From contig JADFYJ010000013.1 in the NCBI GenBank assembly GCA_015233115.1, positions 9,670 through 73,669 on the forward strand: a DNA stretch of 64,000 bases. Direction: 5' to 3'. Positions 1 through 42,493 of this stretch are shown in pieces (the stretch's first letter is position 1; every line of letters starts with the position of its first letter). Below the pieces are notes generated by a model. It did no database searches, was not told where the DNA came from, and was given only the letters and a program-made list of their open reading frames with translations. The DNA is from Candidatus Omnitrophota bacterium (lineage in GTDB: Bacteria; Omnitrophota; Gorgyraeia; Zapsychrales; Zapsychraceae). Made by a program: the position numbers and the translations under genes.

Positions 1-1249
1 CAGGCTGAGGCATAGGATCATGATCCGGAATCCCCGCTTTCTCAAGTTTGGGATCAATCATATAAAAAATTTTTTCCCGTGAACAACTCGCGTGCTGCAT
101 ATCTAACAGCATCGAAGATTGGCATCCTCCTTTAATTCCTGAATAAACGGCACGGGCAAAAATAAATAAATCTAAAAAACTCAAAACACATCTAGGAGAA
201 TAACGTTCCGCAAACCTGCGGTGCGCCAAAGAAATCAATTCTTCCCGGGGAATGGTCCAGTCTAAAAAACCTTCCCTCAAATATTTTTTAAATAACGGAT
301 AAAAATCCAACCCATCCACTTTAAACACCCTGTGGAATTCTTTTAATTTTTCATATCCCGCAAAAACCTGTCCATATTTAAAATTACAAAACATGTGGAT
401 GATATCCCAGGGTGTTAAGAATATTTGCGCAATGCAAAACCGGGCATCGCCCTGTAATGTGCCCACAGAATCGGCAATAGTCCGGCGTGATTTTAATACC
501 CCCGCGGCTTGTTCAAACCACACTAACCAAAACGGGCTCAATGACCGCTTCATTAATTCGTCAGGGAGTGACTTGTAATACCGGTCCGACACTTGACCAT
601 TTTTGTCTTTACTAACACTGACCTCCCATAAACCAGATAAAACAACATTCCCGATTTTTTGCGGCGGCTTCAACAACTGCTTTAAATATAATGTTTCCAG
701 AATCATCGCTAATGCAAATTTGGCACGCTTAAGCAATACTATCAGACAAGATGGCCCCGAGGCTTTAACTTGCAGACAGCTTTCCTCAATAAAAAATTTT
801 TCTTTTAAAACTAATTCTATGGCCCCCGGACATCCAAACAATGATAACCGGGATGCTTCATCTTGAGACGCTAATTCCGCAATTGCTAAAACTTGAATGA
901 TCTGGTCAAAAACCGGCTGAGTTTCACAATCTTTTTCAGAAACTTTATGAAACCACCACACGCTCTCCCCGTATTTATTTTTTAAAGCTTCCCGGAAAGT
1001 TTTACCCGAAAGATTTTTTACGACACCGATTTGAGCGGTAATCTGTATATAAATTTGACGGGCGCGTTCTTTAAAATTCCGGCAAAATATCCGGCCGCGG
1101 ATTATTTCACATTGTGGATTCGCCTGAATAAAATCTTCTTCATCCTTGGGCCATAAAAAACTTAATACTTTGACCCCAGCCTCAGGAGGATGTTCAGGAA
1201 CATCCCAACATATCCAAATTTTAGAAGTATTTTCTAAAGACTGTCTCAC
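1..1249 (-). CDS. Hypothetical polysaccharide-locus protein, 3' end beyond window; probable GTG start overlapping the upstream stop (GTGA)
   Basis: Manual translation of the minus strand gives an uninterrupted frame of over 410 codons from about 1249 to position 1 (..VRQSLENTSKIWICWDVPEHPPEAG..MLLDMQHASCSREKIFYMIDPKLEKAG..). It is absent from the ORF track, presumably because it has no stop inside the window. It is in the same orientation as the operon with a 4-nt overlap to the upstream gene. No confident family match by eye. Confidence 0.45.
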   Translation of the reverse strand, partial: MRQSLENTSKIWICWDVPEHPPEAGVKVLSFLWPKDEEDFIQANPQCEIIRGRIFCRNFKERARQIYIQITAQIGVVKNLSGKTFREALKNKYGESVWWFHKVSEKDCETQPVFDQIIQVLAIAELASQDEASRLSLFGCPGAIELVLKEKFFIEESCLQVKASGPSCLIVLLKRAKFALAMILETLYLKQLLKPPQKIGNVVLSGLWEVSVSKDKNGQVSDRYYKSLPDELMKRSLSPFWLVWFEQAAGVLKSRRTIADSVGTLQGDARFCIAQIFLTPWDIIHMFCNFKYGQVFAGYEKLKEFHRVFKVDGLDFYPLFKKYLREGFLDWTIPREELISLAHRRFAERYSPRCVLSFLDLFIFARAVYSGIKGGCQSSMLLDMQHASCSREKIFYMIDPKLEKAGIPDHDPMPQP

Positions 1250-2124
1250 TTTTTCAAACTTTCTGAAATTTGTTGAAAACAACCTAATAATCCCTGCCCA
1301 ATATCCGTGTAGCAATTCGACGTAATTTTCTGACCAATTTTAGGAATATACGAATATGGCGTCATAGTGTAATGATCTGGATTGGTTCCTGGATGACAAT
1401 CAATGGTAATCTTCTGCCCCATCATTTCTTCAATGGTCGCGATCAGTTGTTTTAACTTAATAGGATGATGGCCAGTAATGATAAGATGTTTATTTTGGTA
1501 TTGTTGAGCCAAAATATCCACGCTCAATTGAGCCGCGTCTTTCACATGAACATATTCTCTGATCTCTTCTCCATCGCCAGCAATAGTCACTCTCTTTTTC
1601 TCTAGAGCCTGCTTAACATAACGATAAACACTGTTTGTTTCACTCGCCCGCGGACCATATAATGTTCCGTAACGCAAAATCGTGAAATCTATGCCATATT
1701 TCCGTTGAAATTCTTCAATGTATGTTTCAGCCGCTTGTTTGCTGCAGCGATAGAATCCGCCTTTTTCGCTGTAAACATAAATGGAGCTGGCAAAAATAAA
1801 CCGTTTCACCTTTTCTAAACGGCAGGCTTCCAAAATATTCAAAGTCCCTTCTACGTTCAAACGCAGTGTATCTATGGGACGCGTAAGCGAAGAGTCTAAA
1901 TCCGCCAACCCGGAAAAATTGTAAACCACATCCTTCCCTTTAATCGCGGTTAACACTTTTTCTGTGTCCAAGATATCAGCGACCTGCATTTTTTGTCCTG
2001 CATTGAGATAAGGCGAATGATGAACATCATAAATAGTCACCTCATGCCCCTGCTCCGTAAGACTATCCGCGACATGACTCCCCAAAAATCCTGAACCACC
2101 GAATACAATCACTTTTAACGGCAT
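1246..2124 (-). CDS. NAD-dependent epimerase/dehydratase (extended SDR)
   Basis: N-terminal Rossmann motif VIVFGGSGFLGSHV and YxxxK motif (YRCSK). The internal ATG at 2124 is preceded by GAGGAG; the track start at 2190 is a TTG inside a repeat array. Confidence 0.75.
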   Translation of the reverse strand: MPLKVIVFGGSGFLGSHVADSLTEQGHEVTIYDVHHSPYLNAGQKMQVADILDTEKVLTAIKGKDVVYNFSGLADLDSSLTRPIDTLRLNVEGTLNILEACRLEKVKRFIFASSIYVYSEKGGFYRCSKQAAETYIEEFQRKYGIDFTILRYGTLYGPRASETNSVYRYVKQALEKKRVTIAGDGEEIREYVHVKDAAQLSVDILAQQYQNKHLIITGHHPIKLKQLIATIEEMMGQKITIDCHPGTNPDHYTMTPYSYIPKIGQKITSNCYTDIGQGLLGCFQQISESLKK

Positions 2125-2406: not shown

Positions 2407-3048
2407 CTATAACAACCGCAATTTACTTTCTAATGCTTCTAAATCGTTTATCATGTCGGATACCAGGGGTATGACATGCTGATTTTCCTTAGTTACCCGG
2501 AAAATAAATTTTACGCCTGTGGCTTGTGCCGCTTTTAAATCAGACTCCCCATCGCCAATAAAAACCACTTCATTCAAGCCATAATGAAAATCCGCCATGA
2601 TAGACCGGATGATTTTATCTTTAGTCGCCGGAGCGCCATGTATTCTTTCGAAATAATTGCTCAACCCTTTTTGCCGGACAATCAATTGCAATTCCGAATC
2701 CGGTGTTCCGGACGCGATAAAAAACTTATATTGGCTTTTATGTTGTTTTAAAAATTCTTCCGCGCCCTTGACGAGAGGAGCAGACACAACCTGCTCAAAC
2801 ACGATCTGCTCAAATTTTGACGAAAGTTCTTTTTCAATATCTGCCGTATAAGTTTCTTTCAAAATATGCTCATAAAAATAACGGAATTTCACAAAACGCG
2901 TGATGCCGGTGTTCTTCAGATGATGCGCGACACCTTGTTCAGCTAATTGAGACGGCCAAGCTGAAAATAACTGCCGAAATGCCGCAGTTTTAATATGCGC
3001 GGATTCGACAATGACGCCGTCAAAATCAAAAATCACTGCTTTGATCAT
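2407..3048 (-). CDS. HAD-superfamily hydrolase (beta-phosphoglucomutase-like sugar-phosphate phosphatase)
   Basis: HAD motif I AVIFDFDGVIVES, plus the IGDG..D motif near the C-terminus. Confidence 0.75.
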   Translation of the reverse strand: MIKAVIFDFDGVIVESAHIKTAAFRQLFSAWPSQLAEQGVAHHLKNTGITRFVKFRYFYEHILKETYTADIEKELSSKFEQIVFEQVVSAPLVKGAEEFLKQHKSQYKFFIASGTPDSELQLIVRQKGLSNYFERIHGAPATKDKIIRSIMADFHYGLNEVVFIGDGESDLKAAQATGVKFIFRVTKENQHVIPLVSDMINDLEALESKLRLL

Positions 3049-3962
3049 TTTTTACTTTCTAAAACATCTAATAAATTTTGAACAGATTCTATTTCCATAC
3101 GGATCCGGGCTTCCTGGGCATAGGATCCGATATGCGCAGTCAACACCACATTATTGAATTGGCACAATGGACCGGTATAAGGCTCTTGCTCAAACACATC
3201 CAGAGCCGCGCCTTTGATCTTTCCATCCTTCAAATATTCTATGAGCGCGTTTTCATCAACCACTCCGCCGCGGGACGTATTAACCAGCCAGCCTTTCGGT
3301 CCCAAAAGCTCCAGTTCATTTTTCGATATCAAGTGATCAGCTGAGTTGATATGTACCGTAATAATATCCGCCCAGCGCAACAGCTCTGGCATTTCCATTC
3401 TGGGGATATTTAGAAAATCACTTTGATGATACGTATCAAAATACGCCAGCTCACAGCCGAAAGCCTTTAATAATTCCGCCACTTTTTTTCCGATTCGGCC
3501 ATAACCAATGATCCCGACTTTTTTCTCAAATAACAAATGCCCCATTCGCTTATGCCATTGTCCGCCGCGCAGTTCCCTATCCATCATGCTGATCTTACGC
3601 ATCAAATCCAAAATTAAACCGACTGTCAATTCAGCCACAGCTAAGGTCGGCGCGTTAGGAGTGCTTTTTAATATCATGCCTTTTTGATTCATCGCGGGCT
3701 GATCCACATTATCAATTCCGGCGCCGCAGCGTGATATCACTTTTAAACCAGTTAATTGATGGATAACATCAGCAGTCAATTTTTCTGTCCCTGCCACCAA
3801 CCCAATAGAACCTGATACGAGCTTAATAATTTCATCAGCTTTCATGGTGCGGCCATGCGGATTCAACTGGTATTCATAACCAGCCTCTCTGAGTAATTTT
3901 AAAGGCTGATCACTGTATTCAGCGAATGAACTGGTAGAAATAAAAATTTTACCCTTAGCCAT
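3045..3962 (-). CDS. D-isomer-specific 2-hydroxyacid dehydrogenase (phosphoglycerate/glycerate dehydrogenase-like)
   Basis: NAD-binding motif GIIGYGRIGKKVAELL, the catalytic-domain arrangement typical of the SerA/GyaR family, and a 4-nt overlap with neighbouring genes. Confidence 0.75.
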   Translation of the reverse strand: MAKGKIFISTSSFAEYSDQPLKLLREAGYEYQLNPHGRTMKADEIIKLVSGSIGLVAGTEKLTADVIHQLTGLKVISRCGAGIDNVDQPAMNQKGMILKSTPNAPTLAVAELTVGLILDLMRKISMMDRELRGGQWHKRMGHLLFEKKVGIIGYGRIGKKVAELLKAFGCELAYFDTYHQSDFLNIPRMEMPELLRWADIITVHINSADHLISKNELELLGPKGWLVNTSRGGVVDENALIEYLKDGKIKGAALDVFEQEPYTGPLCQFNNVVLTAHIGSYAQEARIRMEIESVQNLLDVLESKK

Positions 3963-3964
3963 AT

Positions 3965-4738
3965 TTATCCCTTCACATATTGTTTTGCTAATTTATCAGA
4001 ACGCATCAAGTCTTCCACCAAACGAAAATCTTCCGGTGTATCGACACTGTACGTTTCGTGCTGGGTCATCACCATTTTTACTTTATAACCGTGTTCTAAA
4101 ACGCGCAGCATATCCACGGATTCAACCTTTTCTAATTCGGTTGGTTCTAATTCATTAAACTTCAACAAAAAATCCCGCTGAAAAGGAATAATACAAATTT
4201 GTTTTAACATGCGGAAATTTTTTCCGCCTTTTTTCCAGGACGGAATCGCTTCACGGGAAAAGTACAAGGCAAAATCATTCCGGTCTACTACGACCTTAAC
4301 TTCATTGGGGTCTTCCTGTTCTTCACGCGAATCCATAAGCGACATCAAATTGGAAACTAAAATATTTTTATCATCAATTAAAGGTTTGACAGCTTCATCT
4401 ATCATGTTGGGGAACAACATCGGCTCATCGCCCTGCACCATGACAATCAAATCCGCTTTTCGGCCCCGCTCTTTTTCAATTTTTAATAGCGCTTCCGCGA
4501 CACGGTCTGAACATCTTTCATGGGTATCTTTGGTCATAACCGCTTTTCCGCCGATAGACTCAATATAATCTTTGATCACTTGATCACAGGTCGCGACATA
4601 AACCTCGCTTACTAACGTCGACATTTTGGTCCGGAAATACACATGGCCAATCATCGGCGTACCATTAATTTTAACCATAGGTTTGCCCGGAAAACGCGTA
4701 GATGCCATGCGTCCGGGAATAATTGCGATAATATCCAT
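3965..4738 (-). CDS. KdsB-family CMP-ulosonic acid cytidylyltransferase (CMP-Kdo synthetase-like)
   Basis: IIPGRMASTRFPGKPM, VQGDEPM, ALYFSREAIP and VDTPEDF match the conserved KdsB blocks almost residue for residue; length 257 aa. Confidence 0.8.
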   Translation of the reverse strand: MDIIAIIPGRMASTRFPGKPMVKINGTPMIGHVYFRTKMSTLVSEVYVATCDQVIKDYIESIGGKAVMTKDTHERCSDRVAEALLKIEKERGRKADLIVMVQGDEPMLFPNMIDEAVKPLIDDKNILVSNLMSLMDSREEQEDPNEVKVVVDRNDFALYFSREAIPSWKKGGKNFRMLKQICIIPFQRDFLLKFNELEPTELEKVESVDMLRVLEHGYKVKMVMTQHETYSVDTPEDFRLVEDLMRSDKLAKQYVKG

Positions 4739-4749
4739 AAAAACTCCTC

Positions 4750-5574
4750 CTAAATTTTTCGTCTGAACAAATAATTAAAAACCTGTTTGTCCTGTCCCTG
4801 TCTAATCTTTTCGCCGTCTTGCTTATGAATCAACATTAATCCGCTGTCTTCAATTTTTTTAATTAATGCCTGATGCCCGGCTAAACTTTCATTGATTTCT
4901 ACTAAAAGAGATTTTAGCCTGGTATTTTTTAGTACTTGAGCCGCGCCTTGAATAATATCTTCCTCGATTCCATCCACATCAATTTTTATGTGGTCAGGTG
5001 TTAGCTGGTACCGGTTTACAAAATTATCTAAAGTCATAGAAATCATGCCTTGCTTATAAACCGGGCTAAACGTTTTCCCCTGCTCGTCTATTTGTTGATT
5101 AAATTGATTCAAAGCCGCGCCCGCTTCAAATGACGGCATATATAAATAGCCCAAGGTTTCTTCCCTGGCCAGCGCTATGTTTAAAGCGGTCACTGAATCT
5201 GCGCATTGATTAAGAAAAATATTCTTATTCAATAACGCGTAATTTTGCGATTCAGGCTCAAAAGCAATGACTTTTACACCCTGTTTAGCGGCGTAAATCG
5301 AATATAATCCTATATTGGCGCCGATATTAAAAAAAACTTCTCCGGGTTTCATTGAATCCAGCCATTCAATTGTCGCTGGTTCTTTGCTGAAATAAGTATC
5401 CATCCTCCACCTGGTTGTGCTATTCGGGCAGGAAAAAACAAACGTTTGCTGATTACGCGTAATTTTATATATCGGCTGTATTTCTTCCGCCACACTGCAG
5501 GATGTTACGCTGGCTTTGTCCAATCCCATAATATGGATCAGTGATTTAAGTATTGTTCTTTTCCAATGTTTCAT
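4750..5574 (-). CDS. FkbM-family SAM-dependent methyltransferase
   Basis: FkbM (Methyltransf_21) signature FNIGANIGLYS..IAFEP. Confidence 0.7.
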   Translation of the reverse strand: MKHWKRTILKSLIHIMGLDKASVTSCSVAEEIQPIYKITRNQQTFVFSCPNSTTRWRMDTYFSKEPATIEWLDSMKPGEVFFNIGANIGLYSIYAAKQGVKVIAFEPESQNYALLNKNIFLNQCADSVTALNIALAREETLGYLYMPSFEAGAALNQFNQQIDEQGKTFSPVYKQGMISMTLDNFVNRYQLTPDHIKIDVDGIEEDIIQGAAQVLKNTRLKSLLVEINESLAGHQALIKKIEDSGLMLIHKQDGEKIRQGQDKQVFNYLFRRKI

Positions 5575-5588
5575 AAACGTTTTCCTTA

Positions 5589-6353
5589 TTATTTTTTAAT
5601 CTGTTTCAATTGATCCGCAACCATAGTTGCCAAGAAATAAGAATCCAGACTAAAGCCCAGGAAAGTAAATCCCTGCTGTTGTTTTTGTTTTAACAAATTG
5701 ACATCTGGAGGAACTGAATGCGCCCCTGCGGTTTTATTTAATTTGCGGCACACTTCTAAATATCGTGCTTCTGCCTGCTTAACTTCGTCTCTATGAAATT
5801 CTCCGGGGAAGCCCATGGATGCGGAAAGATCATATGGACCAATAATACTGCCATCCACTCCCTCGACTGACAATATTTCTTCTAAATGCTTAACAGCATC
5901 CACATGCTCAATCTGCACAATGACCACAGCGTTATCTTTCAACCATTGTTTATAAGCCTCAAAATCCATGCCGAATTTCTGTGCACGCGCCAGCCCGACT
6001 CCACGTTTTCCCTTCATAGGATAATAAACTGATTCGACCGCCCGAATCGCGTCTGCTTTAGAATTCACCATAGGTACAATAACTCCATACGCACCAGCAT
6101 CCATAACCCGTTTGATAATCAAAGGGTCATTCGCGCCTACACGCACTAAAGGAATCGTACCGCAAAGCTCCGCGATGCGGATGAGTTCCTGAGCCTGGCC
6201 AAACGTAATCGCCGAATGTTCCATATCAACCGCCAGCCAGTCAAATCCGGATGAGGCCATGATTTCCATGGTATTTCCGTCAGATAAAGTAATCCAAGAA
6301 CCAATCGTCAATTGATTTTGCTTCAACTGCTCTTTTAATAAATTTTTTTTCAT
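5589..6353 (-). CDS. HpcH/HpaI-family class II pyruvate aldolase
   Basis: GFDWLAVDMEHSA matches the HpaI block GFDWLLIDGEHAP. The size of 254 aa and TIM-barrel aldolase composition fit. Confidence 0.7.
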   Translation of the reverse strand: MKKNLLKEQLKQNQLTIGSWITLSDGNTMEIMASSGFDWLAVDMEHSAITFGQAQELIRIAELCGTIPLVRVGANDPLIIKRVMDAGAYGVIVPMVNSKADAIRAVESVYYPMKGKRGVGLARAQKFGMDFEAYKQWLKDNAVVIVQIEHVDAVKHLEEILSVEGVDGSIIGPYDLSASMGFPGEFHRDEVKQAEARYLEVCRKLNKTAGAHSVPPDVNLLKQKQQQGFTFLGFSLDSYFLATMVADQLKQIKK

Positions 6354-6356: not shown

Positions 6357-7883
6357 TTATCCTTTTGAAATCAATAAATTTTTCATAGAATTTATTTTGT
6401 CATAAACCAATAAAACAATTTCCTGAAAACGCTGGTTAAATTTAAAACTTAATATCACCAAGATCAGTCCATAAATAAAAACAATCCCCAATTTTATGAC
6501 GAGCCATATCATGGACACGGTTGAATATTGATTTAAAAATAAAAATAACGCCGCGATTAAAATAAAAACCGAAAAATTCCTGATTAAATAATACCTGCTC
6601 CGGTGCAAATGTTGAGACAAATAATACGTGACTAAAAAAGTCAAAAAATTAGAAAGCATGGACGCGAAGGACGCGCCGATAAAATCAAAACGGGACACAA
6701 AGATGTAATTTAAAACAATACTGCAAAAAATACCGAAAAAAGTCACAAAAGAATAAAAAATAGTCCGGTTTTTGAATATAAATTTCAAATTAAGGATTCC
6801 GCTGAGCTCTTGGAATAAATATGTCGACATCATCATCGGAATAATAATAAAAACATTACCGTACTGGGCACTCGCGAACACCTTAACGAGTTCACGGGCA
6901 AACAACGAGACTGTAAAAACAACAAACACGGAAAACTGGAAAAACAAGGCGAAAATTTCCGTAAGATCTTTTTGAATATTTGCGTCTTTACCGTCAAGCC
7001 TTTTGGATATCTCCGGTTTGACTGTGGTGACCACTGGGCGGGAAAACATGGAAAATACATTGCTGAATTTATCACCCAAATCAAACAAACCCACGGATTT
7101 CGCGGATTGCATCCGTGATAAAAATATTTTTTCAAGATAGCCCTGCACCCAAGAGACAAAATTTAAGGGCAATAGCGGCAAAGAATATTTCATAGCCATG
7201 GAGAAAATTTTCATCCGCCGCCATGAAAATCCGATATTTTTTCTCAACAAAAATAAACCAAAACCCGCGCCCAATATCCGGGCCGCTAATTGCAAAACCA
7301 CCACATCCACCCAGGTAAATTTCCAAAAAACTAAACCAATTATTTGGAGCGGGACAATCAACAAAAATTCAAAGATCTCAGAGAATATAAGATATTTATT
7401 ATTTTGCAAAGATATAAACGCTTCCATAAAAAAAGCGAAAAAATTAGAAAAAAACGCGTAAATAACCGGCACCAGGTATAACCAAGGTTGCTGCGCTGAC
7501 GCGTCTTTAATAAAAAACAAAAAAAGCATTTTCGAAAAAGGAATACATACAGCCAAAACACTTAAGGACACTAGCAATTTTATGACAATGATAACTCCCA
7601 AATATTGACGGCACAACCGCGGGCACCGCCGATCATATTTCAAAATTAATCTGGATCCAAAATTACTTAATCCCAGATCAAAGAAACCCTGCAGCATAGC
7701 GGCTTGCACTAAAAATAAAGCAATGATGCCGTAGGCTTCCGGCTTAAGATATGCCGTCGTGACAGGCAATATCAATAAAGAAACCATCCGGACTGTCATC
7801 CGTCCAATAAAAAGCCATGAGACATTCTTAAAAAGAAATTTATGGCGTTGTCCCTGAGCAATACGATGTCTTGACATTCTCAT
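6357..7883 (-). CDS. Polysaccharide/O-antigen flippase, Wzx-like (MOP superfamily)
   Basis: About 12 predicted TM helices, 500 aa, composition typical of Wzx, embedded in the glycan locus. Confidence 0.65.
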   Translation of the reverse strand: MRMSRHRIAQGQRHKFLFKNVSWLFIGRMTVRMVSLLILPVTTAYLKPEAYGIIALFLVQAAMLQGFFDLGLSNFGSRLILKYDRRCPRLCRQYLGVIIVIKLLVSLSVLAVCIPFSKMLFLFFIKDASAQQPWLYLVPVIYAFFSNFFAFFMEAFISLQNNKYLIFSEIFEFLLIVPLQIIGLVFWKFTWVDVVVLQLAARILGAGFGLFLLRKNIGFSWRRMKIFSMAMKYSLPLLPLNFVSWVQGYLEKIFLSRMQSAKSVGLFDLGDKFSNVFSMFSRPVVTTVKPEISKRLDGKDANIQKDLTEIFALFFQFSVFVVFTVSLFARELVKVFASAQYGNVFIIIPMMMSTYLFQELSGILNLKFIFKNRTIFYSFVTFFGIFCSIVLNYIFVSRFDFIGASFASMLSNFLTFLVTYYLSQHLHRSRYYLIRNFSVFILIAALFLFLNQYSTVSMIWLVIKLGIVFIYGLILVILSFKFNQRFQEIVLLVYDKINSMKNLLISKG

Positions 7884-7918: not shown

Positions 7919-8707
7919 TTACCAACAAGACAATCCGCCATCTACCATCAACACTTGCCCGGTCATATACGAAGACAATTCCGAGCTTAAAAAATACACC
8001 GCGTTCGCAACTTCATCCGCCCGCGCCATTCTTTTCATGGGAATGCATTTTTTATATCTTTCAATAAATTGTTCCGGTTGATGATCAAAAACTCCGGCTG
8101 GGCATACCACATTGGCTCGAACATTGTAATCCGCCAAATACGTGGCTAAATACCGGGTCAAATTCACAATTCCGCCTTTAATCATGGAATACGCGGCCGG
8201 CATAGTCATTTCTGTGCCTTCGTAAACAGAAAAATTTGGGGCTAAGACTCCATACTGCGAACCCAAATTAACAATCACTCCCGCTTTTTGCTTCTTAAAA
8301 ACTTCCGCGATGGCCTGGCAACAAAAGAAATATCCATTCAAATGCTTTTCCATATTCCATTTCAATGAATCAGGTTGAATATCTTCAAACTTATTGCCCC
8401 AATCCTTTGACCGGGGATAAGCATTGTTCACCCAAATATCAATTTTCCCTTCTTGAGAACAAATTTGCTTGATGGCAGCATTAATCGACATTGGATCGGA
8501 AATATCAATGAGCTGAAAACTGACGGCAAGACCTTCCCCTTTGAGTTCCTTCAAAACACTTTCAGTCTTTTTTTCATCTATGTCCGCGATCACGACACGC
8601 GCGCCGCCTTGTGCTAAAACACGGACGATGGCTTGACCAATTAAACCAGAACCTCCGGTGACAACCGCAATCTTTCCATTTAACAAAAACGCGTTAGATA
8701 GGGCCAT
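7919..8707 (-). CDS. Short-chain dehydrogenase/reductase, PtmA-like
   Basis: TGGSGLIGQAI glycine-rich motif and the classical SDR YxxxK region. Last gene of a ptmE-F-B-A-like quartet. Confidence 0.7.
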   Translation of the reverse strand: MALSNAFLLNGKIAVVTGGSGLIGQAIVRVLAQGGARVVIADIDEKKTESVLKELKGEGLAVSFQLIDISDPMSINAAIKQICSQEGKIDIWVNNAYPRSKDWGNKFEDIQPDSLKWNMEKHLNGYFFCCQAIAEVFKKQKAGVIVNLGSQYGVLAPNFSVYEGTEMTMPAAYSMIKGGIVNLTRYLATYLADYNVRANVVCPAGVFDHQPEQFIERYKKCIPMKRMARADEVANAVYFLSSELSSYMTGQVLMVDGGLSCW

Positions 8708-9401
8708 GGGACACTTTTTCCTTTAATAAAAGTTCGACAATTTTAAAATCCACTAAGGAATCAATATCAATACTCCGGTCCTGAGGCATTTCATATAATT
8801 TGACTTTTCCGGAGATAATCGACTTTTGGTTCAGCAAAACCTCGGTTTTCCAAACATAAATCGACGCGTTCATGGCGTAAACAATAGGCGCGCTTTGCCG
8901 TCCTAAAATCACGGATCCGGCGTTTTTACTGACCTCGGCAAACCCTGCCTCATTAATTTCCACCATATTAAAATAAGGATTTTTATTGGAACGATAACCG
9001 GTTATAACGGAATCGCAATTTCCTTTTTGGATTAAAGCGATACACCCGGCAATGTCTTCCAGCAGTCTCAATGGAGAAGTAGGGTCTAGATCAACCACAT
9101 ATTCCGGATTTAATTTCATTTCCTTGATAGCATATTGCACGGCGTGTTGAAGCGCTGGAAGCTTCCCTGCCGCGTCAGTGGCTAATTCCGCAGGCCGTAA
9201 AAACGGGACTTTGGCGCCAAAGGATTTTGCGGTCTCCGCAATTTCAACTGAATCTGTGGTCACGATCACCTCATTAATCAACGGGCATTGCAAGGCTTGT
9301 TCAATTGTATAACCGATCAATGGTTTGCCCATTAATGGTCGGATATTTTTTTGCGGGACACCTTTAGATCCGCCTCTAGCCGCGATGGTCGCGAGAATCA
9401 T
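8694..9401 (-). CDS. Acylneuraminate cytidylyltransferase family (CMP-NulO synthetase, LegF/PtmB/NeuA-like)
   Basis: N-terminus ILATIAARGGSKGVPQKNIRPLMGKPLIGYTI is the NeuA/CMP-sialate synthetase signature. Confidence 0.8.
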   Translation of the reverse strand: MILATIAARGGSKGVPQKNIRPLMGKPLIGYTIEQALQCPLINEVIVTTDSVEIAETAKSFGAKVPFLRPAELATDAAGKLPALQHAVQYAIKEMKLNPEYVVDLDPTSPLRLLEDIAGCIALIQKGNCDSVITGYRSNKNPYFNMVEINEAGFAEVSKNAGSVILGRQSAPIVYAMNASIYVWKTEVLLNQKSIISGKVKLYEMPQDRSIDIDSLVDFKIVELLLKEKVSHGPI

Positions 9402-10336
9402 AAACTTTGTCCCTCTTTAAAATGAATGAGTTGACGGAATAATTGTGCCGCTTCTGAAATATTATTCATCATGGTTTTCCGCTCTGTCACATGCGACAAA
9501 AAATATTTTAACTGTTCCACAAACATATCGTCCCGCTCAAACGGAAACACGCGGGATTCTTTATGGCCGCGTTGAAAAAAATCAATCCGCGCCGCCATTA
9601 AATCCGCCACCAAAGACTGATCCGGTAAATCAATCCGTATTTTCCTTTCCGGCGAAAAACTCATAAAATCCAAATGCACATTCACTCGAGTTTTTTCTGT
9701 AACCACCACAGCATCACAACAGTCTTCCGCGTCAACCGTTACTTCTGATAGGCGCTTGAGAGAACCATGTATCTGCGCGATTTTTCCAAATAGATATTCA
9801 ATATAATCAAATTCATGCGACAATTCCAAAACCACGCCGCCGCCTTTATCTTTAAACGCTGAATAAGACTGCAAATGATCCTGATTGGGCCGCCAATCTG
9901 GCAGATACGAACTCGCGTTCACGCTGACTTGCAAAATTTTTTTATCTTTCAGATATTCTTTCAAAAATACGATTGCCGGATGAAACCGGAGCACATAGCC
10001 GACATACGATAGAACTTTTTTTGTTTGAATGGTTTGTTCCAACACATCCAAGCCATCCAGCGAAGAACCCAAAGGCTTTTCTAAAAAAACCGGAACACCC
10101 ACATTCACGCACTCTTGAGCGGTTGAAACATGCAAAAACGTTGGGTTCGCAATCAAAGCCGCCTCTGGCAAATTTTGCCGAAACTCATCCCAAGACTGGA
10201 ACATGGGACCAGACCAATCCGTCGGTTCCTGGCCTTTAAAACTGCGAAAAGCCCAGAGTTCATGCCCACCTAACTGACGCAATAAACGCGTATGACGCTG
10301 TCCGATTGAACCTAAACCAAACACACATATCTTCAT
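9398..10336 (-). CDS. Gfo/Idh/MocA-family oxidoreductase, PtmF-like
   Basis: N-terminal MKICVFGLGSIGQRH Rossmann and EKP motif typical of Gfo/Idh/MocA. Confidence 0.7.
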   Translation of the reverse strand: MKICVFGLGSIGQRHTRLLRQLGGHELWAFRSFKGQEPTDWSGPMFQSWDEFRQNLPEAALIANPTFLHVSTAQECVNVGVPVFLEKPLGSSLDGLDVLEQTIQTKKVLSYVGYVLRFHPAIVFLKEYLKDKKILQVSVNASSYLPDWRPNQDHLQSYSAFKDKGGGVVLELSHEFDYIEYLFGKIAQIHGSLKRLSEVTVDAEDCCDAVVVTEKTRVNVHLDFMSFSPERKIRIDLPDQSLVADLMAARIDFFQRGHKESRVFPFERDDMFVEQLKYFLSHVTERKTMMNNISEAAQLFRQLIHFKEGQSL

Positions 10337-11394
10337 AACTTATATTCCAGCCGATCAATGGTTTTATGGTATTCTTCCCATTGCCCCACATCCATATACG
10401 ACTTCTCCGAAACAGGATAGACACTAATGTTCTCTCCTTTTTTCAACAATACCGCGATCAAATCCGGCATATCAAACGGTTTGCCTTTAGGGATATATTT
10501 CAAAGCTTTCTTGGATAAAATGTAAACACCTGTATTGACGGTAAAATCAATCTCAGGTTTTTCTTCGATATTTTGAATTTTTCCGTGTTCCTTAAAATGG
10601 ATCACTCCGTAGGGAATTTTATGATGCTGAATAGTTCCGACTACCGTTAATAAATTCTGGTATTTACGGTGAAAACTCAACAAATCCGCGTAATCCGCGT
10701 TGACGATCACATCGCAGTTAGACACAATAAAATTCTCCGCAATATCCGCTGGCAGCATTTTCAAACTTCCGGCTGTTCCTAAAAATTCTTTTTCCCACAA
10801 ATAATGAATTTTATATTTATGGTCGATATAGTCAAAATACACTTTGATCATTTCGCCTTTATAATTCATGGTTAAGAAAAATTCCGGCGCCCCTATAGCC
10901 GTAAACCGGTCAATGATCACTTCAATAATGGGTTTATCATTGACGGGGATCAACGCTTTAGGCAGGATCCGCGTAAACGGCCCCAAACGCTGGCCTTTTC
11001 CTCCGGCCATAATCACGACGGGAACATCAATTTTATTACGGGGAAACGTTGATTCAGACACCAAATCCATCCAGAAAAACACATTCACAATTTTTTTAAA
11101 TTCATCCACCACCGGCAAAGCTTCAATTTTTTCCCGCACCATTAATTCTTTGATAATATCCTGATCCGTACCCTTTAAAACACTCCGGGGTTTAGCATTA
11201 TAAACTTTCTCAATGGTGCCGTGCAAATTCCCCTGTCCCAACAAATAACGGCGGATATCACCGTCAGTCAGAACACCGCATAAAGCGTCATGCTTATCAA
11301 CGACAAATAAAATTTTTTCGCCGCCCTCGTCCATACGCCTTAAAGCTTCACGAACCGTTATTTTTTTGGTAATGATCAGTTGCTGGATATCCAT
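10333..11394 (-). CDS. Tandem-CBS-domain sugar-phosphate nucleotidyltransferase, PtmE-like
   Basis: N-terminal CBS pair (..GVLTDGDIRRYLL..) followed by the NTP-transferase motif VVIMAGGKGQRLGPFTRILPKALIPV. Confidence 0.75.
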   Translation of the reverse strand: MDIQQLIITKKITVREALRRMDEGGEKILFVVDKHDALCGVLTDGDIRRYLLGQGNLHGTIEKVYNAKPRSVLKGTDQDIIKELMVREKIEALPVVDEFKKIVNVFFWMDLVSESTFPRNKIDVPVVIMAGGKGQRLGPFTRILPKALIPVNDKPIIEVIIDRFTAIGAPEFFLTMNYKGEMIKVYFDYIDHKYKIHYLWEKEFLGTAGSLKMLPADIAENFIVSNCDVIVNADYADLLSFHRKYQNLLTVVGTIQHHKIPYGVIHFKEHGKIQNIEEKPEIDFTVNTGVYILSKKALKYIPKGKPFDMPDLIAVLLKKGENISVYPVSEKSYMDVGQWEEYHKTIDRLEYKL

Positions 11395-12606
11395 TTAGCT
11401 CACCTGTTGACGTAATTGCCATTTTTGATTAACTTGTTTCCACAAATGCGGCGGACGGGCCCGGTCTATTATTTCATAAAATTTCTGCTCTGTGACCCCC
11501 ATGTATTCCAAATTATCCCGGAAATATTGTTTGGGGAATTCACCGTCAAAACGCTTGACCAGCCTGACCCCTTCATCGCGGGTAATATGCCCGTTACGGA
11601 CTTCCTGCGCCGCATCGTAAGTCGCGCGGCCAATGCCGAATTTAATAAAATAAGTATAAAAGTGAAACCAGTCAATTTTGTCGTCAAGACTATTGTATTT
11701 GCTATAACTGCCTTCCGTTCTTTGGTCATTGGGATAAAAATCCGTATTTTCCACTGAATAATAATAGGCCCATTGCGGATCCCATCGTAAATAATAACCT
11801 AAATAATGGACTTCCATTTTTAAACTTTCCGCGGCTTCCGGCGCAATCGGCATATAAGGCTCAATATCCGCACGGGTGAGGCCGTAATCTGTAATAAGCT
11901 TTTTCGCGTTCACACCGCCTAAATAAATTTCTTCCAATCGCTGTTCATAGGTAAAAAATTTCGTACTGCGCGTAGCTTTGTCATTATCTTTAATCGGATT
12001 GCCGTATTCCGCCTCGTTTTCTCCATAAACCACTAAAGGAATTTTATAAAGCGACGCAACTTTCGGCGCCACATTTTTCTGCCCGATGATAAACGGCTGA
12101 AACGGGTGGACTAAATTTTCAAATGCCAATTTCGTGATCAAACGGTGCACTTTCTGGTTCGGCGTATACGTGATATTATCAAAGCCCGCGTTAACCCACG
12201 CCTCAAAATTTCTCCGGCCCGGAATTGTATAAAGGTGCGGCGCCCAGGTTACTAATAAAGGATTCATGTTGTATTTGTAACGCAGGACATGCGCGGCCAC
12301 AATGCTGTCTTTTCCGCCGCTCCCGGGAACTATACAATCATAATTTCCGTCCGGACTGCGGAATCGCGCCAGCATTTTATGCAATTCTTCTTCGCGTTCC
12401 TGCCAATTGATTGATTTTTTATTTTCCGCGTAACGGCAAGCCTCACACACTCCTTCATTATCAAAACCAATGGTGCGTTTTTTACTGCTTTCCGTATTCT
12501 TAAACTCAACCACTGAAGAAGGCCGTTGATTAGAAATGACACATTTTTTACAATATTTAACATCAACAGGCAATCCATACATGCCGAATTCCGCTTTTTG
12601 TTCCAT
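11395..12606 (-). CDS. N-acetyl sugar amidotransferase (PP-loop ATPase; PseA/WbuX-like)
   Basis: PP-loop VPGSGGKDSIVAAH and N-terminal Cys cluster (CKKCVISNQRP..CEAC); lies directly upstream of HisH/HisF paralogs. Confidence 0.75.
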   Translation of the reverse strand: MEQKAEFGMYGLPVDVKYCKKCVISNQRPSSVVEFKNTESSKKRTIGFDNEGVCEACRYAENKKSINWQEREEELHKMLARFRSPDGNYDCIVPGSGGKDSIVAAHVLRYKYNMNPLLVTWAPHLYTIPGRRNFEAWVNAGFDNITYTPNQKVHRLITKLAFENLVHPFQPFIIGQKNVAPKVASLYKIPLVVYGENEAEYGNPIKDNDKATRSTKFFTYEQRLEEIYLGGVNAKKLITDYGLTRADIEPYMPIAPEAAESLKMEVHYLGYYLRWDPQWAYYYSVENTDFYPNDQRTEGSYSKYNSLDDKIDWFHFYTYFIKFGIGRATYDAAQEVRNGHITRDEGVRLVKRFDGEFPKQYFRDNLEYMGVTEQKFYEIIDRARPPHLWKQVNQKWQLRQQVS

Positions 12607-12616
12607 AACTGTCCCT

Positions 12617-13222
12617 TTATATGCTTAAAAAATTATCAATAATTTTTAATCCATGCGTCCGGCTTTTTTCCGGGTGAAACTGCACGCCAAAAACCTGATC
12701 CCGCTCAACCACAGATACAAAACTATGATCTATGTAATTTGATAACCCTGCCACATCTTTATAATTAATAAACTCATAAGAATGCATAAAATAAAAAACA
12801 TCTTCAGCGGTCACTCCTTTTAAAATTTTAGATGGACGGATCACCTCCACATTCGCCCAGCCAATATGCGGGACCGGATGCTTGACCGGCATAAGCCTGA
12901 CTGCGCCTTCAAAATATTTCAATCCCGGGGTTTCGCCAAATTCATAACCAATCTCGGATAGAATCTGCATTCCCAAACAAATGCCTAACGTAGGTACTTT
13001 TAAAATTTTATCACGCAATTCCTGGTAAAACGGGGCAATGGATTCCATGGCGCCTTTGTATGTTCCTACGCCGGGAATAACAATTTTATCAACAGATTTC
13101 AAATCCTGACCGGATTTGACTACCACGATTTTGACCTCTTTTTTCGCCAGCTCAAACACTTTGCGGATATTAAAGATGTTTCCGGCTTGTCCGTAATCTA
13201 TCACTCCAATCACTTGGCTCAT
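12617..13222 (-). CDS. Glutamine amidotransferase, HisH paralog (WbuY-like)
   Basis: Class I GATase nucleophile motif GICLGMQ and FHPEKS. Confidence 0.8.
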   Translation of the reverse strand: MSQVIGVIDYGQAGNIFNIRKVFELAKKEVKIVVVKSGQDLKSVDKIVIPGVGTYKGAMESIAPFYQELRDKILKVPTLGICLGMQILSEIGYEFGETPGLKYFEGAVRLMPVKHPVPHIGWANVEVIRPSKILKGVTAEDVFYFMHSYEFINYKDVAGLSNYIDHSFVSVVERDQVFGVQFHPEKSRTHGLKIIDNFLSI

Positions 13223-13974
13223 AACGTCACCTCGATTTCCTGACTTAACAAATACTCTTTGATTTCGCGAATCGTGATGCGGTCATAGTGCAGCATGGAC
13301 GCGATACAAACCGCATTGACATTGCCATCTTTAATAACATCCCGGATGTGTTCCAATTGGCCGGCTCCGCCTGCGGCCACCACAGGCACTGACGCGATAG
13401 TAGAAATACCCGCCATGAGTTCCACATCAAAACCTTTTTGTCGTCCTTCAGTATCCACAGACGTTACTAATAATTCTCCAGCGCCTAAATCCTGGACTTC
13501 TTTCACCCAATCCATAACATCTTTCCCTGAAGGGATGCGGCCATAATCCGTGTAACATTCCCAACCGTCGCCTTTACGTTTGGCTTCAATAGAAACGGTC
13601 ACGCATTGGCTTCCAAAAATATGCGCGCAATCCCGGATCAACTGCGGGTTAGCAATAGCCGCGGTATTTATAACCACTTTATCTGCCCCGCAATGCAGTA
13701 ACCGAGCCACATCATCCGTCGTGCGAATTCCTCCGCCCACGCAAAAAGGCGCGACAATGCTTTTGGCCGTCTGCTCAATATACTCAAACAAAATCTCTCT
13801 TTGGTATAAACTGGCTACCGCGTCAATATAAAAAATTTCATCCGCGCCCTGCCAATAATACTTCTCAGCCAGAGCTTCAGGCTGACCCATTTTCCGCAGT
13901 CCTTCGAAATGAACTCCTTTGATCACATAGGGAGGTTTCACATCCAGGCGAGCGATCACACGTATTTTAGACAT
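13219..13974 (-). CDS. Imidazole glycerol phosphate synthase cyclase-subunit paralog, HisF-like (WbuZ-like)
   Basis: (beta/alpha)8 HisF signature regions RVIARLDVK..GADEIF..VGGGIR..AAGGAG. Confidence 0.8.
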   Translation of the reverse strand: MSKIRVIARLDVKPPYVIKGVHFEGLRKMGQPEALAEKYYWQGADEIFYIDAVASLYQREILFEYIEQTAKSIVAPFCVGGGIRTTDDVARLLHCGADKVVINTAAIANPQLIRDCAHIFGSQCVTVSIEAKRKGDGWECYTDYGRIPSGKDVMDWVKEVQDLGAGELLVTSVDTEGRQKGFDVELMAGISTIASVPVVAAGGAGQLEHIRDVIKDGNVNAVCIASMLHYDRITIREIKEYLLSQEIEVTL

Positions 13975-15148
13975 TCACTAACTCCTTGTTCAAATCATAG
14001 AATTCTTTTTTTAAAATTCCTTCTAAAGAAATTTTTTTTAATATTTTAACAATTTTAACAGCAGTCCCGCCTTTGCCATAAATATTCTTCACCAATTTTA
14101 ACTGACTCTGAAATGACGGAGAATACAAACGCTGTAAAGCCTTTTGGATCGATACGGTTTGCGGGCCGCAATCAATGATACTAGATGAACGCAGACGTCC
14201 AGCCTGACGGTCACCGATATTGACTGTCCCAATCTTGAAACTCGGCGCTTCCACAATTCCGCTCGAAGAATTTCCCACCACCCCATCCACATATTGCATC
14301 ATGGACAAATAATTCAACTGACCCAATGAAGTAAAAACTCTGGTATGACCTGGATGCCCCTCAACATACTTTTCAATGAGTTGGTTAATAACTTGACCAT
14401 CTGTATCCGCGTTAGCTTTGGTAAAAAACACCATGGTCTCTTTTAGTCCATTCAAAGCCTGCAAAAGGTTCTGGCATTGTTCAGGGGCCGTATTATTTTC
14501 CAGAGTCACCGGATGAAACGTCACCAGCAAATTATGTGGTGCAAATTTTAATTTCAAATTTCTCTCTAATTCATCCTTGGACAACAATTTCAATAATTTC
14601 AAATTATCTAAACCCAAAGCCCCCACATTAAAAACACGTTGAGGATTTTCTCCTAATTGAATAATTCTCCGCCGATAAACATCCGTGGCCGCGAAATGCA
14701 CGCTCGCCATCTTGGTGATGGAATGACGGATTGGTTCATCAATCAGTCCAAACGTTGATTCTCCGCCGGAAATATGCGCGATAGGGATCCGGCTGACCAT
14801 CGCGGCTGTAGCCGCTGCCAAAGCTTCAAATCTGTCGCCTAAAATAACCAACATATCCGGATTCAATTTTTTCAAAGCTTGCGCGTATCCTTCCACCCCT
14901 CTGGCCATTGAGCGGCAAATGCCCACCGGAGAATCATCTCCCAAATGGAGGTCAACTTTCGCGTCAATCGAAAATCCATCTTGAACAATCTGCTGATACG
15001 TCATTCCAAATTTCTTGGATAAATGCGTGCCTGAGACCAATAACTGTAAATCAAAAGCAGAATCTTTGCTTAATTCCTTAAGAAGAGGGAATAGCAAACC
15101 ATATTCCGCCCGCGTCGCGGTAAACACGCAGATTGTCCGCTTTCTCAT
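13967..15148 (-). CDS. Hydrolysing NDP-N-acetylglucosamine 2-epimerase (NeuC/LegG family)
   Basis: N-terminus ICVFTATRAEYGLL and overall NeuC-like length of 393 aa. Confidence 0.8.
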   Translation of the reverse strand: MRKRTICVFTATRAEYGLLFPLLKELSKDSAFDLQLLVSGTHLSKKFGMTYQQIVQDGFSIDAKVDLHLGDDSPVGICRSMARGVEGYAQALKKLNPDMLVILGDRFEALAAATAAMVSRIPIAHISGGESTFGLIDEPIRHSITKMASVHFAATDVYRRRIIQLGENPQRVFNVGALGLDNLKLLKLLSKDELERNLKLKFAPHNLLVTFHPVTLENNTAPEQCQNLLQALNGLKETMVFFTKANADTDGQVINQLIEKYVEGHPGHTRVFTSLGQLNYLSMMQYVDGVVGNSSSGIVEAPSFKIGTVNIGDRQAGRLRSSSIIDCGPQTVSIQKALQRLYSPSFQSQLKLVKNIYGKGGTAVKIVKILKKISLEGILKKEFYDLNKELVNV

Positions 15149-15864
15149 AATTTATCCTTTTTGCGGATTTCCAAAATAGTGGCGTCATAAATTAACCCCA
15201 TCCCATTGATAAATTTACGGCCTTCCGGAGTTATCATAGTCCAGCTGCGGATCGGATCTTCCTGCGGAACCAGATCAAAAGGCAAATGGAATTTATCGAT
15301 GTGAGAAATTTTCATATTCATCTCATCCAATACTTTTTTAACCGTCTCCAATGAATGATTATTATACCCATATTCAAAATTTTGATTATATTTATTGTTG
15401 CGGTATATGGTCCGCACATCCACATCAAACGTGTTAAATAATCCTAAAATAAAAATGACACCGTTATTTTCTAAATGATTCCGTAAATTTAAAAGCGGCT
15501 GATGGATATCATCAAAAAAAGATAAAACACCGGACATGGTGATCACATCAAATTTCTGGTTGAGCTGAAAATTCTCCGCTTTCCCGCATTGAAAGGCCAC
15601 CCCTTTTAATCCGGCGAATCGTTGCGCTGAATCAATCAATCCCTGACTATAATCAACTCCGGCTATATGTTTTATCTTTAATCCGGATAAATGTTTCAAA
15701 TAATATAAAAACTCCCCCCGGGCACAACCCACATCCAAGACTGAAAATTCATGGTTTGGGTATACCCCGCGGATTTTTTCACCCATGCATTTAAACATTT
15801 CTTTAGGTTTTGAATAATAATCTTCATTCAAATAGATGTATTGACTTTGATAATTGTCCGCCAT
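15145..15864 (-). CDS. Class I SAM-dependent methyltransferase
   Basis: Motif I VLDVGCARGEF. Confidence 0.6.
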   Translation of the reverse strand: MADNYQSQYIYLNEDYYSKPKEMFKCMGEKIRGVYPNHEFSVLDVGCARGEFLYYLKHLSGLKIKHIAGVDYSQGLIDSAQRFAGLKGVAFQCGKAENFQLNQKFDVITMSGVLSFFDDIHQPLLNLRNHLENNGVIFILGLFNTFDVDVRTIYRNNKYNQNFEYGYNNHSLETVKKVLDEMNMKISHIDKFHLPFDLVPQEDPIRSWTMITPEGRKFINGMGLIYDATILEIRKKDKL

Positions 15865-15866
15865 GT

Positions 15867-19318: not shown

Positions 19319-19352
19319 ATTTCTTATCCTAATATATTTTACATTTTTTGTA

Positions 19353-19467
19353 GTAGGGGCGATCTCCCGATCGCCCGTATCCATTCGCTTTTCAATTAAC
19401 AATATGCTTTTAAGAATCATTAAAAAAACGATAATTTTGTAACGGGCGATCAGGAGATCGCCCCTAC
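19353..19467. repeat. 26-bp GC-rich inverted repeats (one mismatch) flanking a 63-bp AT-rich spacer; each arm is itself a hairpin (GGGCGATC..GATCGCCC)
   Basis: Left arm 19353-19378 gtaggggcgatctcccgatcgcccgt; right arm 19442-19467 is its reverse complement with C/T at one position. Intergenic between two operon genes. Confidence 0.7.
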
Positions 19468-19475
19468 AACACATA

Positions 19476-28803: not shown

Positions 28804-28826
28804 TGCTCAATCCTAATGTTACTCGA

Positions 28827-30311: not shown

Positions 30312-30372
30312 TTTTCATCCTTTTTACTGGTCGGAATTCCACCGAGAGTGATCACTTCATACCTGACCCCTT

Positions 30373-32124: not shown

Positions 32125-32136
32125 AATAATCCTTAT

Positions 32137-33075: not shown

Positions 33076-33077
33076 GA

Positions 33078-34094: not shown

Positions 34095-34135
34095 GGTGAC
34101 CCCTTTCTGTATATCGTTCCCATTAAATACCCTAA

Positions 34136-35083: not shown

Positions 35084-35126
35084 ACAAAAATCCTATCGAT
35101 TTCTTATGAAACAAAAATTTAACCAC

Positions 35127-36926: not shown

Positions 36927-36928
36927 AT

Positions 36929-42488: not shown

Positions 42489-42493
42489 AGCGG

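Follow-up and report, generated by a model that had tools for sequence, protein, structure and literature searches.

A 64,000-nt stretch of contig JADFYJ010000013.1 from Candidatus Omnitrophota bacterium (assembly GCA_015233115.1, positions 9,670 to 73,669 of the forward strand; hereafter the window) encodes a gene cassette in which a pyruvate aldolase is paired with a cytidylyltransferase resembling KdsB, the synthetase for cytidine monophosphate (CMP)-activated 3-deoxy-D-manno-octulosonate (Kdo). The cassette is best interpreted as an aldolase-based, sialic-acid-like module which would provide a CMP-activated, usually O-methylated ulosonic acid other than Kdo for a cell-surface glycan, a prediction from sequence that is held with slightly better than even confidence. 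Because the two genes form a conserved adjacent pair, the sugar pocket of the cytidylyltransferase is remodelled and the gene assignments hold, an aldolase-based route to a CMP-ulosonic acid is the best reading of the locus. An earlier interpretation made from the letters of the window alone (the sequence-only reading) had proposed such a KdsA-independent route to a 3-deoxy-2-ulosonic acid; it is supported in part, and the route is retained here.

Organization of the cassette

Five co-directional open reading frames (ORFs) occupy positions 2407-6353 on the minus strand, from which nearly the whole window is read. The genes are at most 15 nt apart and overlap by 4 nt at the closest, which indicates a single operon, and two start/stop overlaps within the cassette are evidence of its tightness. 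In order of transcription, the five genes encode an HpcH/HpaI aldolase, an FkbM methyltransferase, the KdsB-like protein, a D-2-hydroxyacid dehydrogenase and a HAD-IA phosphatase. The sequence-only reading had placed the same genes within these positions, and each of its assignments is confirmed by Pfam and NCBIfam. The boundaries it drew at 2407 and 6353 are too narrow, as a short-chain dehydrogenase/reductase (SDR), a GT-B protein and a Wzx flippase also belong to the cassette. The unit sits within a glycan locus of approximately 46 kb together with two nonulosonic acid (NulO) modules of the NeuB/NeuA type. Its genes are listed below in order of transcription.

6357-7883, minus strand: Wzx-type polysaccharide flippase, 508 aa (PF01943, E = 2.6e-24), 4 nt upstream of the aldolase gene
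5589-6353, minus strand: HpcH/HpaI class II (metal-dependent) pyruvate aldolase, 254 aa (PF03328, E = 2.7e-33)
4750-5574, minus strand: FkbM-family S-adenosylmethionine (SAM) methyltransferase, 274 aa (PF05050, E = 1.9e-11; TIGR01444, 83.8 bits, cutoff 37.7)
3965-4738, minus strand: KdsB-like CTP:ulosonate cytidylyltransferase, 257 aa (PF02348, E = 3.1e-44; NF009905; TIGR00466)
3045-3962, minus strand: D-isomer-specific 2-hydroxyacid dehydrogenase, 305 aa, short and similar to phosphoglycerate dehydrogenase (PGDH) (PF02826, E = 1.9e-52)
2407-3048, minus strand: HAD-IA phosphatase, 213 aa (PF13419, E = 2e-20), with a 4-nt overlap with the dehydrogenase gene
1246-2124, minus strand: extended GalE-like SDR, 292 aa from ATG 2124 (PF01370, E = 5.3e-45)
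1-1249, minus strand: GT-B-fold putative transferase P0121 (HQL26_07590), the first 416 of its 634 codons, running past the window edge

A pyruvate aldolase with an intact catalytic set

The aldolase carries its GFDWLAVDMEH block at residues 36-46, and its best solved relatives are YfaU (2vws, 138 bits), HpaI (4b5s, 135 bits) and GarL (1dxe, 123 bits). Residues H46, R71, E149 and D175 correspond to H45, R70, E149 and D175 of HpaI and are conserved in 61 family members. The protein scores under all NCBIfam equivalog cutoffs, including those for HpaI (189 vs 369), GarL (153 vs 407) and RhmA (140 vs 441). The earlier HpcH/HpaI assignment therefore holds at the family level. Identity as a citrate-lyase beta subunit, which had been raised as the outcome that would overturn it, is rejected, since the protein groups with HpaI, YfaU and GarL and its His/Arg/Glu/Asp set is present. 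The aldolase is proposed to catalyze the first committed step of the pathway.

A KdsB-like enzyme with a remodelled sugar pocket

Profile searches with PF02348, NF009905 and TIGR00466 uphold the original assignment of the cytidylyltransferase as KdsB-like. Its closest solved structure is KpsU (1gq9, E = 1.5e-42), and identities with E. coli KdsB (~37%), KpsU and the KdsB proteins of Parabacteroides and Fusobacterium fall at 36-40%. Identity inside the KdsB-like family is 60-76%, and thousands of close relatives are found at that level.

The sugar pocket was compared by aligning four canonical KdsB/KpsU proteins, from Proteobacteria, Bacteroidota and Fusobacteriota, with 24 family members. Residues for catalysis and for binding of CTP and Mg are retained (R10, S13, R15, K19, Q98, D100, E101, R157, R213 and D235 in E. 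coli numbering), and R10, R15, K19, Q98, D100, R157 and D235 are conserved both in the window protein and throughout the family. At 12 positions that are invariant in the canonical enzymes, the family carries uniform replacements: Y11M, D50C, N96M, T125N, R164K, H181Q, G183C, Y185I, Y187F, E210D, Q211M and G233S. This signature is kept in about 70 family members, including those encoded without a neighboring aldolase. The replacements cover the Kdo-pocket set, in which H181, Y185, E210, Q211, N96, R164 and Y11 become Q, I, D, M, M, K and M, respectively. In the E. coli enzyme, O5 of Kdo is hydrogen-bonded by Q98 and Y185, and H181 belongs to the active site (PMC12199768). The substituted residues are larger in some cases and smaller in others, and the pocket is less polar overall.

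Since the catalytic residues are kept and 12 pocket positions are changed, the alignment indicates that the chemistry is conserved and that the pocket is remodelled with respect to true Kdo enzymes. A less polar pocket of this kind would fit a different acid, which may be O-methylated. The cassette acid is probably not Kdo, and the gene, which is automatically annotated as an ordinary enzyme of lipopolysaccharide (LPS) synthesis, is almost certainly not one.

Four related loci encode a second KdsB-like copy (L005 9712-10473, L049 18085-18858, L068 12999-13745 and L078 16435-17181). These copies form a sister clade, about 50% identical to the window protein, with the signature L11, P50, N96, F/W164, Q/E181 and F/M185, which points to a wider radiation of putative non-Kdo cytidylyltransferases with distinct specificities. 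Fusions among representatives of the KdsB-like proteins involve a PRD domain or unknown N-termini, and KdsC-type and CTP_transf_like fusions occur in more distant clades only; they are uninformative on the core family. Plasmid and phage collections contain canonical KdsB alone, at 33-40% identity, and no cassette.

Conservation across bacteria and archaea

Carriers of the KdsB-like gene were counted at one genome per species. The family is present in at least 592 species-level genomes, including those of archaea, members of the candidate phyla radiation (CPR) and monoderms. Among the 80 loci kept, archaeal carriers are Hadarchaeia, Thermoplasmatales, Methanoregula and Methanomicrobiales; those from CPR and related lineages are Nealsonbacteria, Moraniibacteriota and Saganbacteria; and monoderms are represented by Syntrophomonas wolfei and Dehalococcoidia. 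Many diderm phyla are also present, with Desulfovibrio piger ATCC 29098 among their members. Synthesis of LPS is not expected in Hadarchaeia, Thermoplasmatales, Methanoregula, Nealsonbacteria, Moraniibacteriota, S. wolfei or Dehalococcoidia.

In 60 of 73 loci, the gene immediately upstream of the KdsB-like gene encodes the aldolase, and the two share a strand in 56 of 56. Clustering of ORFs over 81 non-redundant loci recovers the aldolase in 60, at a median of 0.8 kb upstream, the SDR in 50, the dehydrogenase in 44 and the phosphatase in 33. Composition is given below for those aldolase loci (42) in which the downstream sequence extends for 6 kb or more.

SDR: 39/42 loci
Methyltransferase: 30/42 loci
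Dehydrogenase: 30/42 loci
HAD phosphatase: 29/42 loci, co-varying with the dehydrogenase
PF04199 'cyclase': 18/42 loci
Hexapeptide acyltransferase: 12/42 loci
Methyltransferase, acyltransferase or B12-radical SAM protein: 36/42 loci

The consensus order begins with NulO genes where present, followed by a TIGR04331 transferase, a Wzx or ABC exporter, the aldolase and the KdsB-like gene. It continues with a methyltransferase or acetyltransferase, the dehydrogenase, the SDR, the cyclase, the HAD phosphatase and a TIGR04326-like GT-B protein. The gene preceding the aldolase is Wzx-like in 13 loci and an ABC exporter in 9. From the component counts and this order, the core of the cassette is made up of aldolase, cytidylyltransferase and SDR; the dehydrogenase and phosphatase occur together and are dispensable. 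The cassette is a conserved, mobile unit, and its aldolase-cytidylyltransferase pairing is independent of LPS.

It is also independent of the canonical Kdo enzymes. A tblastn search of the window and of 85 related loci with E. coli KdsA, KdsD and KdsC gives no match at E <= 1e-3, and no Pfam match to KdsA, KdsD or KdsC is found among the window genes scanned (1246-57774). The earlier statement that KdsA and KdsD are lacking is accordingly correct for the window.

Several members with the same signature have no adjacent aldolase. These include L018, L022 and L038 from Chloroflexota, as well as L036, L040, L043 and L047. L022 lies in a polysaccharide cluster of the Wzm/Wzt (Wzt_C) ABC-transporter type that also has sulfotransferases, and methyltransferases are found near L036 and L047. 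Such members in Wzm/Wzt-type clusters suggest that the same acid is used there too, where it may terminate chains. In two aldolase-less loci, one of them from Nealsonbacteria, a fusion protein of about 615-630 aa joins a GT2 glycosyltransferase to a zinc-type alcohol dehydrogenase (L039 1234-3123 and L048 6571-8418). The fusion gene is close upstream of the KdsB-like gene, beside the dehydrogenase gene or with the cyclase between.

Proposed supply and decorating enzymes

The dehydrogenase is most similar to the P. horikoshii 'PGDH' 1wwk (193 bits) among solved structures, with human PHGDH at 152 bits. Its catalytic R231/E260/H278 motifs are intact. A true 3-phosphoglycerate dehydrogenase (SerA) was considered for this gene, and that identity is weakened by a score of 220 bits against TIGR01327 (cutoff 454) and by the missing Arg of the PGDH 'VRS' loop, which reads 'VAG' here, with AG conserved across 45 family members. 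As the phosphate-loop Arg is replaced in this way, the enzyme may take a non-phosphorylated 2-hydroxy or 2-keto acid. The HAD-IA phosphatase carries DFDG at residues 8-11 and GDGESD at 165-170, and matches models for beta-phosphoglucomutase and phosphoglycolate phosphatase weakly. Both enzymes are missing from about 30% of loci and therefore look like substrate supply, for example of hydroxypyruvate from phosphoglycerate, and are probably not core steps.

The slot filled by FkbM in the window is variable. In other loci it is occupied by a class I methyltransferase (32), a second methyltransferase type (10), FkbM (7) or a hexapeptide acyltransferase (21). FkbM is proposed to be one of several interchangeable decorating enzymes, acting here by O-methylation. 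The phosphatase, dehydrogenase and O-methylation steps of the sequence-only reading are represented by enzymes that are present; their roles and order would follow the scheme given below, and the methyltransferase is exchanged elsewhere for class I methyltransferases, hexapeptide acyltransferases or B12-radical SAM proteins.

The SDR, the GT-B protein and export

The SDR contains GGSGFLG and YRCSK motifs. Among solved structures it is nearest to UDP-hexose 4-epimerases and to uncharacterised epimerase/dehydratases, at no more than 96 bits. Translation starts at ATG 2124 after a strong Shine-Dalgarno sequence, AAGAGGAG, which fits the GxxGxxG N-terminus; the mechanically called ORF at 1246-2190 (TTG 2190, 314 aa) probably begins 22 codons too early. 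A 282-nt spacer separates the HAD and SDR genes. It holds two 60-nt direct repeats (2142-2201 and 2234-2293) which are 90% identical and 92 nt apart. Both contain tandem GTAAC(C/A)(G/A) heptamers, a motif found nowhere else in the window (0 expected by chance), and the repeats could serve in regulation or as an internal promoter.

The GT-B gene overlaps the SDR stop codon (GTGA). P0121 is a distant relative of the TIGR04326 and TIGR04396 'surface carbohydrate biosynthesis' proteins and scores below the TIGR04326 (LIC13510) cutoff. Its homologues weakly match the NulO transferase domain of Tannerella BFO_1060. These relationships support a nucleotide-sugar-dependent transferase and leave its donor unspecified; no specific similarity to Kdo transferases or sialyltransferases was found, the match being to the generic GT-B fold alone. 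A TIGR04326-like GT-B protein is encoded downstream in 31 of the 60 aldolase loci, 12 of which have no NulO gene within 10 kb. P0121 is therefore a putative transferase for the cassette product, and action of the SDR on a CMP-sugar is plausible. Since a GalE-like SDR that is nearly universal and a GT-B transferase follow it, CMP activation, with which the sequence-only reading had the pathway ending, is probably not the last step.

Proposed pathway

In the proposed pathway, the class II aldolase would condense pyruvate with an aldehyde to form a 4-hydroxy-2-oxo (ulosonic) acid. Hydroxypyruvate is a possible alternative donor, which the HAD phosphatase and the 2-hydroxyacid dehydrogenase would form from phosphoglycerate. 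A hydroxyl group would then be capped by the methyltransferase (FkbM in the window) or, in other genomes, by an acetyltransferase, as NeuD does for sialic acid. Using CTP, the KdsB-like enzyme would convert the acid to a CMP-glycoside, pulling the unfavourable aldol equilibrium forward. The GalE-like SDR would epimerise or oxidise the CMP-sugar, the GT-B protein would move the sugar onto the growing glycan, and Wzx would flip the lipid-linked unit. In this scheme we infer the direction of the aldolase, its substrates, the chain length of the acid and the timing of methylation.

Alternative explanations

Several observations weigh against an independent, non-Kdo sugar donor. The KdsB-like protein clears the kdsB equivalog cutoffs, with 165.3 bits for TIGR00466 (cutoff 155.2) and 312.5 for NF009905 (cutoff 255), and clusters of its relatives at 50% identity grade from 63% to 40% identity without a sharp gap. 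The dehydrogenase and phosphatase are without an assigned step, and the aldolase could run in the cleavage direction. In 27 of the 60 aldolase loci, NulO genes are found no more than 10 kb upstream, so that the cassette product could modify those sugars.

This last point underlies an explanation in which the cassette makes an N-acyl substituent for the neighboring NulOs and no separate sugar donor, which is unlikely, though less so than the other alternatives. The aldolase would join pyruvate and glyceraldehyde (or its 3-phosphate) to give a 2-keto-3-deoxy-hexonate, from which the phosphatase would strip any phosphate; the dehydrogenase would reduce C2 and the methyltransferase cap the 2-OH, yielding 3-deoxy-2-O-methyl-hexonic acid. 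This enzyme set fits, step for step, the 2-methoxy-4,5,6-trihydroxy-hexanoyl group borne by the flagellin NulO of Treponema denticola (PMC13439194). The frequent position of the cassette at the 3' end of NulO operons agrees with it: the NeuB cluster shares the strand in 16 of 16 members and has a median position of -7.4 kb, and NulO genes are present in 27 of 60 aldolase loci. A dehydrogenase without the PGDH phosphate-loop Arg is compatible with a non-phosphorylated 2-keto acid, and the legionaminic-acid-type module of the window contains an ATP-grasp ligase. However, the tightest pair is the aldolase with the cytidylyltransferase rather than with the dehydrogenase, and about 30% of loci lack the dehydrogenase and phosphatase, yet the KdsB-like gene and the SDR persist. 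The cytidylyltransferase, SDR and GT-B protein are left unexplained, and the KdsB-like enzyme would need an unusual activating role such as acyl-CMP formation. To our knowledge, there is no precedent for acyl-CMP formation by a KdsB-type fold. Moreover, the KdsB-type residues for the hydroxyl next to the carboxylate are all kept, whereas a 2-O-methylated acid has no such hydroxyl. The 12 loci that combine the cassette and GT-B gene with no NulO gene within 10 kb also argue against this explanation.

Two further explanations keep Kdo as the product. Kdo aldolase activity has long been known (EC 4.1.2.23), and organisms lacking KdsA might form Kdo or O-methyl-Kdo from D-arabinose and pyruvate, the phosphatase yielding arabinose from arabinose 5-phosphate. 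Clearance of the kdsB equivalog cutoff agrees with this possibility, as do some members found in O-polysaccharide clusters of the Wzm/Wzt type, in which a Kdo-type residue at the terminus would make sense, and NulO transferases can use CMP-Kdo. It is nonetheless improbable, as the 12 canonically invariant positions are uniformly replaced, including H181 and the O5-binding Y185; tblastn finds no KdsD-like isomerase in the window or the 85 loci; and neither the dehydrogenase nor the SDR would have a role. Alternatively, the gene may be an ordinary KpsU-like paralogue, a CMP-Kdo synthetase for capsule or O-antigen that stands beside unrelated genes and receives Kdo from a canonical kdsD-kdsA-kdsC set elsewhere in the genome. 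Omnitrophota are presumed diderms, KpsU is the best solved match (1gq9, E = 1.5e-42) and NCBI models name the protein KdsB. The chance of this is slim, given that the adjacency of the aldolase is conserved across phyla and both domains, that the family occurs in archaea, CPR and monoderms, and that its invariant altered pocket signature accompanies only 36-40% identity to true KdsB/KpsU. A CMP-activated ulosonic acid other than Kdo remains the favored product of the cassette.

Neighboring glycan modules

NeuB and NeuA-type genes of the window belong to two separate modules, and the cassette itself has neither. As the sequence-only reading had noticed, the KdsB-like gene is a third cytidylyltransferase beside NeuA/PseF-type CTP_transf_3 genes at 8694-9401 and 42494-43198, each of which is near a NeuB gene (17416-18447 and 41427-42488, respectively). 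The main neighboring features are as follows.

7919-24390, minus strand: legionaminic-acid-type module with PtmA, PtmB-like CMP transferase, PtmF, PtmE, WbuX, NeuC, NeuB, LegC-like and LegB
30373-32124, minus strand: LIC12162-family (TIGR04331) putative transferase, 397.7 bits (cutoff 225)

The legionaminic-acid-type module scores above the cutoffs for LegB (504 vs 475), NeuC (474 vs 236), NeuB (484 vs 400) and WbuX (346 vs 203), and its LegC-like protein, at 411 bits, is just under the cutoff of 420. It also encodes HisH/HisF-like proteins with the WbuX amidotransferase, a formyltransferase and the ATP-grasp protein. At its 3' end, the products of 24400-26250 (616 aa) and 26256-26828 (190 aa) have no Pfam match. 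For the 616-aa protein, NCBIfam is likewise without a match, and no resemblance to TIGR04331 or TIGR04326-like transferases could be detected; this protein may be a third transferase, serving the third CMP-sugar.

The second NulO-like module spans 39041-47030. Its NeuB (41427-42488) is under the equivalog cutoff, and a DUF4910/DUF2172 protein is encoded at 40129-41427. The CTP_transf_3 protein at 42494-43198 is closer to KdsB N-termini than to PseF, and 43173-44795 encodes a PseG-like protein of 540 aa whose N-terminal part resembles a cytidylyltransferase. An Fe-dependent alcohol dehydrogenase (45960-47030) adjoins a PseC-like aminotransferase (44779-45957), an arrangement which recalls KdnB/KdnA of the Kdo8N pathway.

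Relatives of the TIGR04331 transferase are found in 14 loci, mostly 2.5-6.4 kb upstream of the cassette, and 11 of these carry NulO genes. TIGR04331 accompanies NulO genes and the TIGR04326-like protein accompanies the cassette, a distribution which fits two CMP-sugar donors per locus. Surrounding the window's TIGR04331 transferase, the region 27361-38008 holds a tailoring set consisting of an MBOAT acyltransferase, a B12-binding radical SAM protein, an aldo-keto reductase, two SPASM radical SAM proteins, a methyltransferase and a carbamoyltransferase, which suggests that the glycan is heavily decorated.

Significance

More broadly, the cassette may define a new class of CMP-activated ulosonic acids beside Kdo and the sialic/NulO family, made by an aldolase, usually O-methylated, and serving bacteria, CPR and archaea in the decoration of surface glycans, with thousands of 'CMP-Kdo synthetase' genes misnamed. 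This proposal is tentative and somewhat less probable than not. A literature search, incomplete in its coverage, returned no description of the cassette, and publications on the glycosylation islands of Tannerella, Geobacillus, C. botulinum and Clostridium make no mention of an aldolase or a KdsB-like gene. Should the model be right, automatic naming of the key enzyme as KdsB has hidden a surface-sugar pathway that is common and phylogenetically very broad. The ulosonic acid family would gain a new biosynthetic logic, in which an aldolase and a CTP-driven pull take the place of a phosphoenolpyruvate (PEP) synthase. Annotation that implies Kdo or LPS where neither is expected would be corrected, and unusual acidic or O-methylated residues in flagellin, S-layer and O-antigen glycans might be explained. 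The cassette also offers a concrete gene set for seeking the sugar in cultured carriers, which include D. piger ATCC 29098, S. wolfei subsp. methylbutyratica JCM 14075 and Daejeonella sp. H1SJ63.

Comparison with known systems

The pathway of Kdo activation (KdsD-KdsA-KdsC-KdsB/KpsU) shares with the cassette the cytidylyltransferase fold and its catalytic residues, and the general course of a 2-keto-3-deoxy acid, dephosphorylation by a HAD enzyme and activation with CTP. The cassette differs in having a class II pyruvate aldolase in place of PEP-dependent KdsA, KdsD and the KdsC-type HAD-IIIA phosphatase. It adds an SDR, a dehydrogenase and a methyltransferase, its Kdo-pocket residues are replaced, and it occurs in carriers that are not expected to make LPS.

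The aldolase resembles HpaI, YfaU (RhmA) and GarL in fold and in its His/Arg/Glu/Asp set, at approximately 135 bits each, and those enzymes make or cleave 2-keto-3-deoxy sugar acids. However, the characterised members are catabolic, whereas the cassette aldolase falls under every equivalog cutoff and is found in glycan biosynthesis beside a cytidylyltransferase. The T. denticola flagellin glycan provides another parallel. Its acyl skeleton is what an aldolase, reduction of a 2-keto group and O-methylation would be expected to produce, although the likeness is one of structure, and the acyl model does not account for the cytidylyltransferase and dedicated GT-B protein of the cassette.

In overall logic the cassette follows the sialic acid and NulO modules (NeuC-NeuB-NeuA with NeuD, and their legionaminic and pseudaminic counterparts), to which it is physically appended. 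Both are built to supply a precursor, condense a C3 unit with an aldehyde, decorate the product in some cases with an O-acyl or O-methyl group and activate it with CMP, and both have their own large transferase and a flippase. The cassette is set apart by an aldolase instead of a NeuB-type PEP synthase, by KdsB-type rather than NeuA-type activation, and by the GalE-like SDR that follows.

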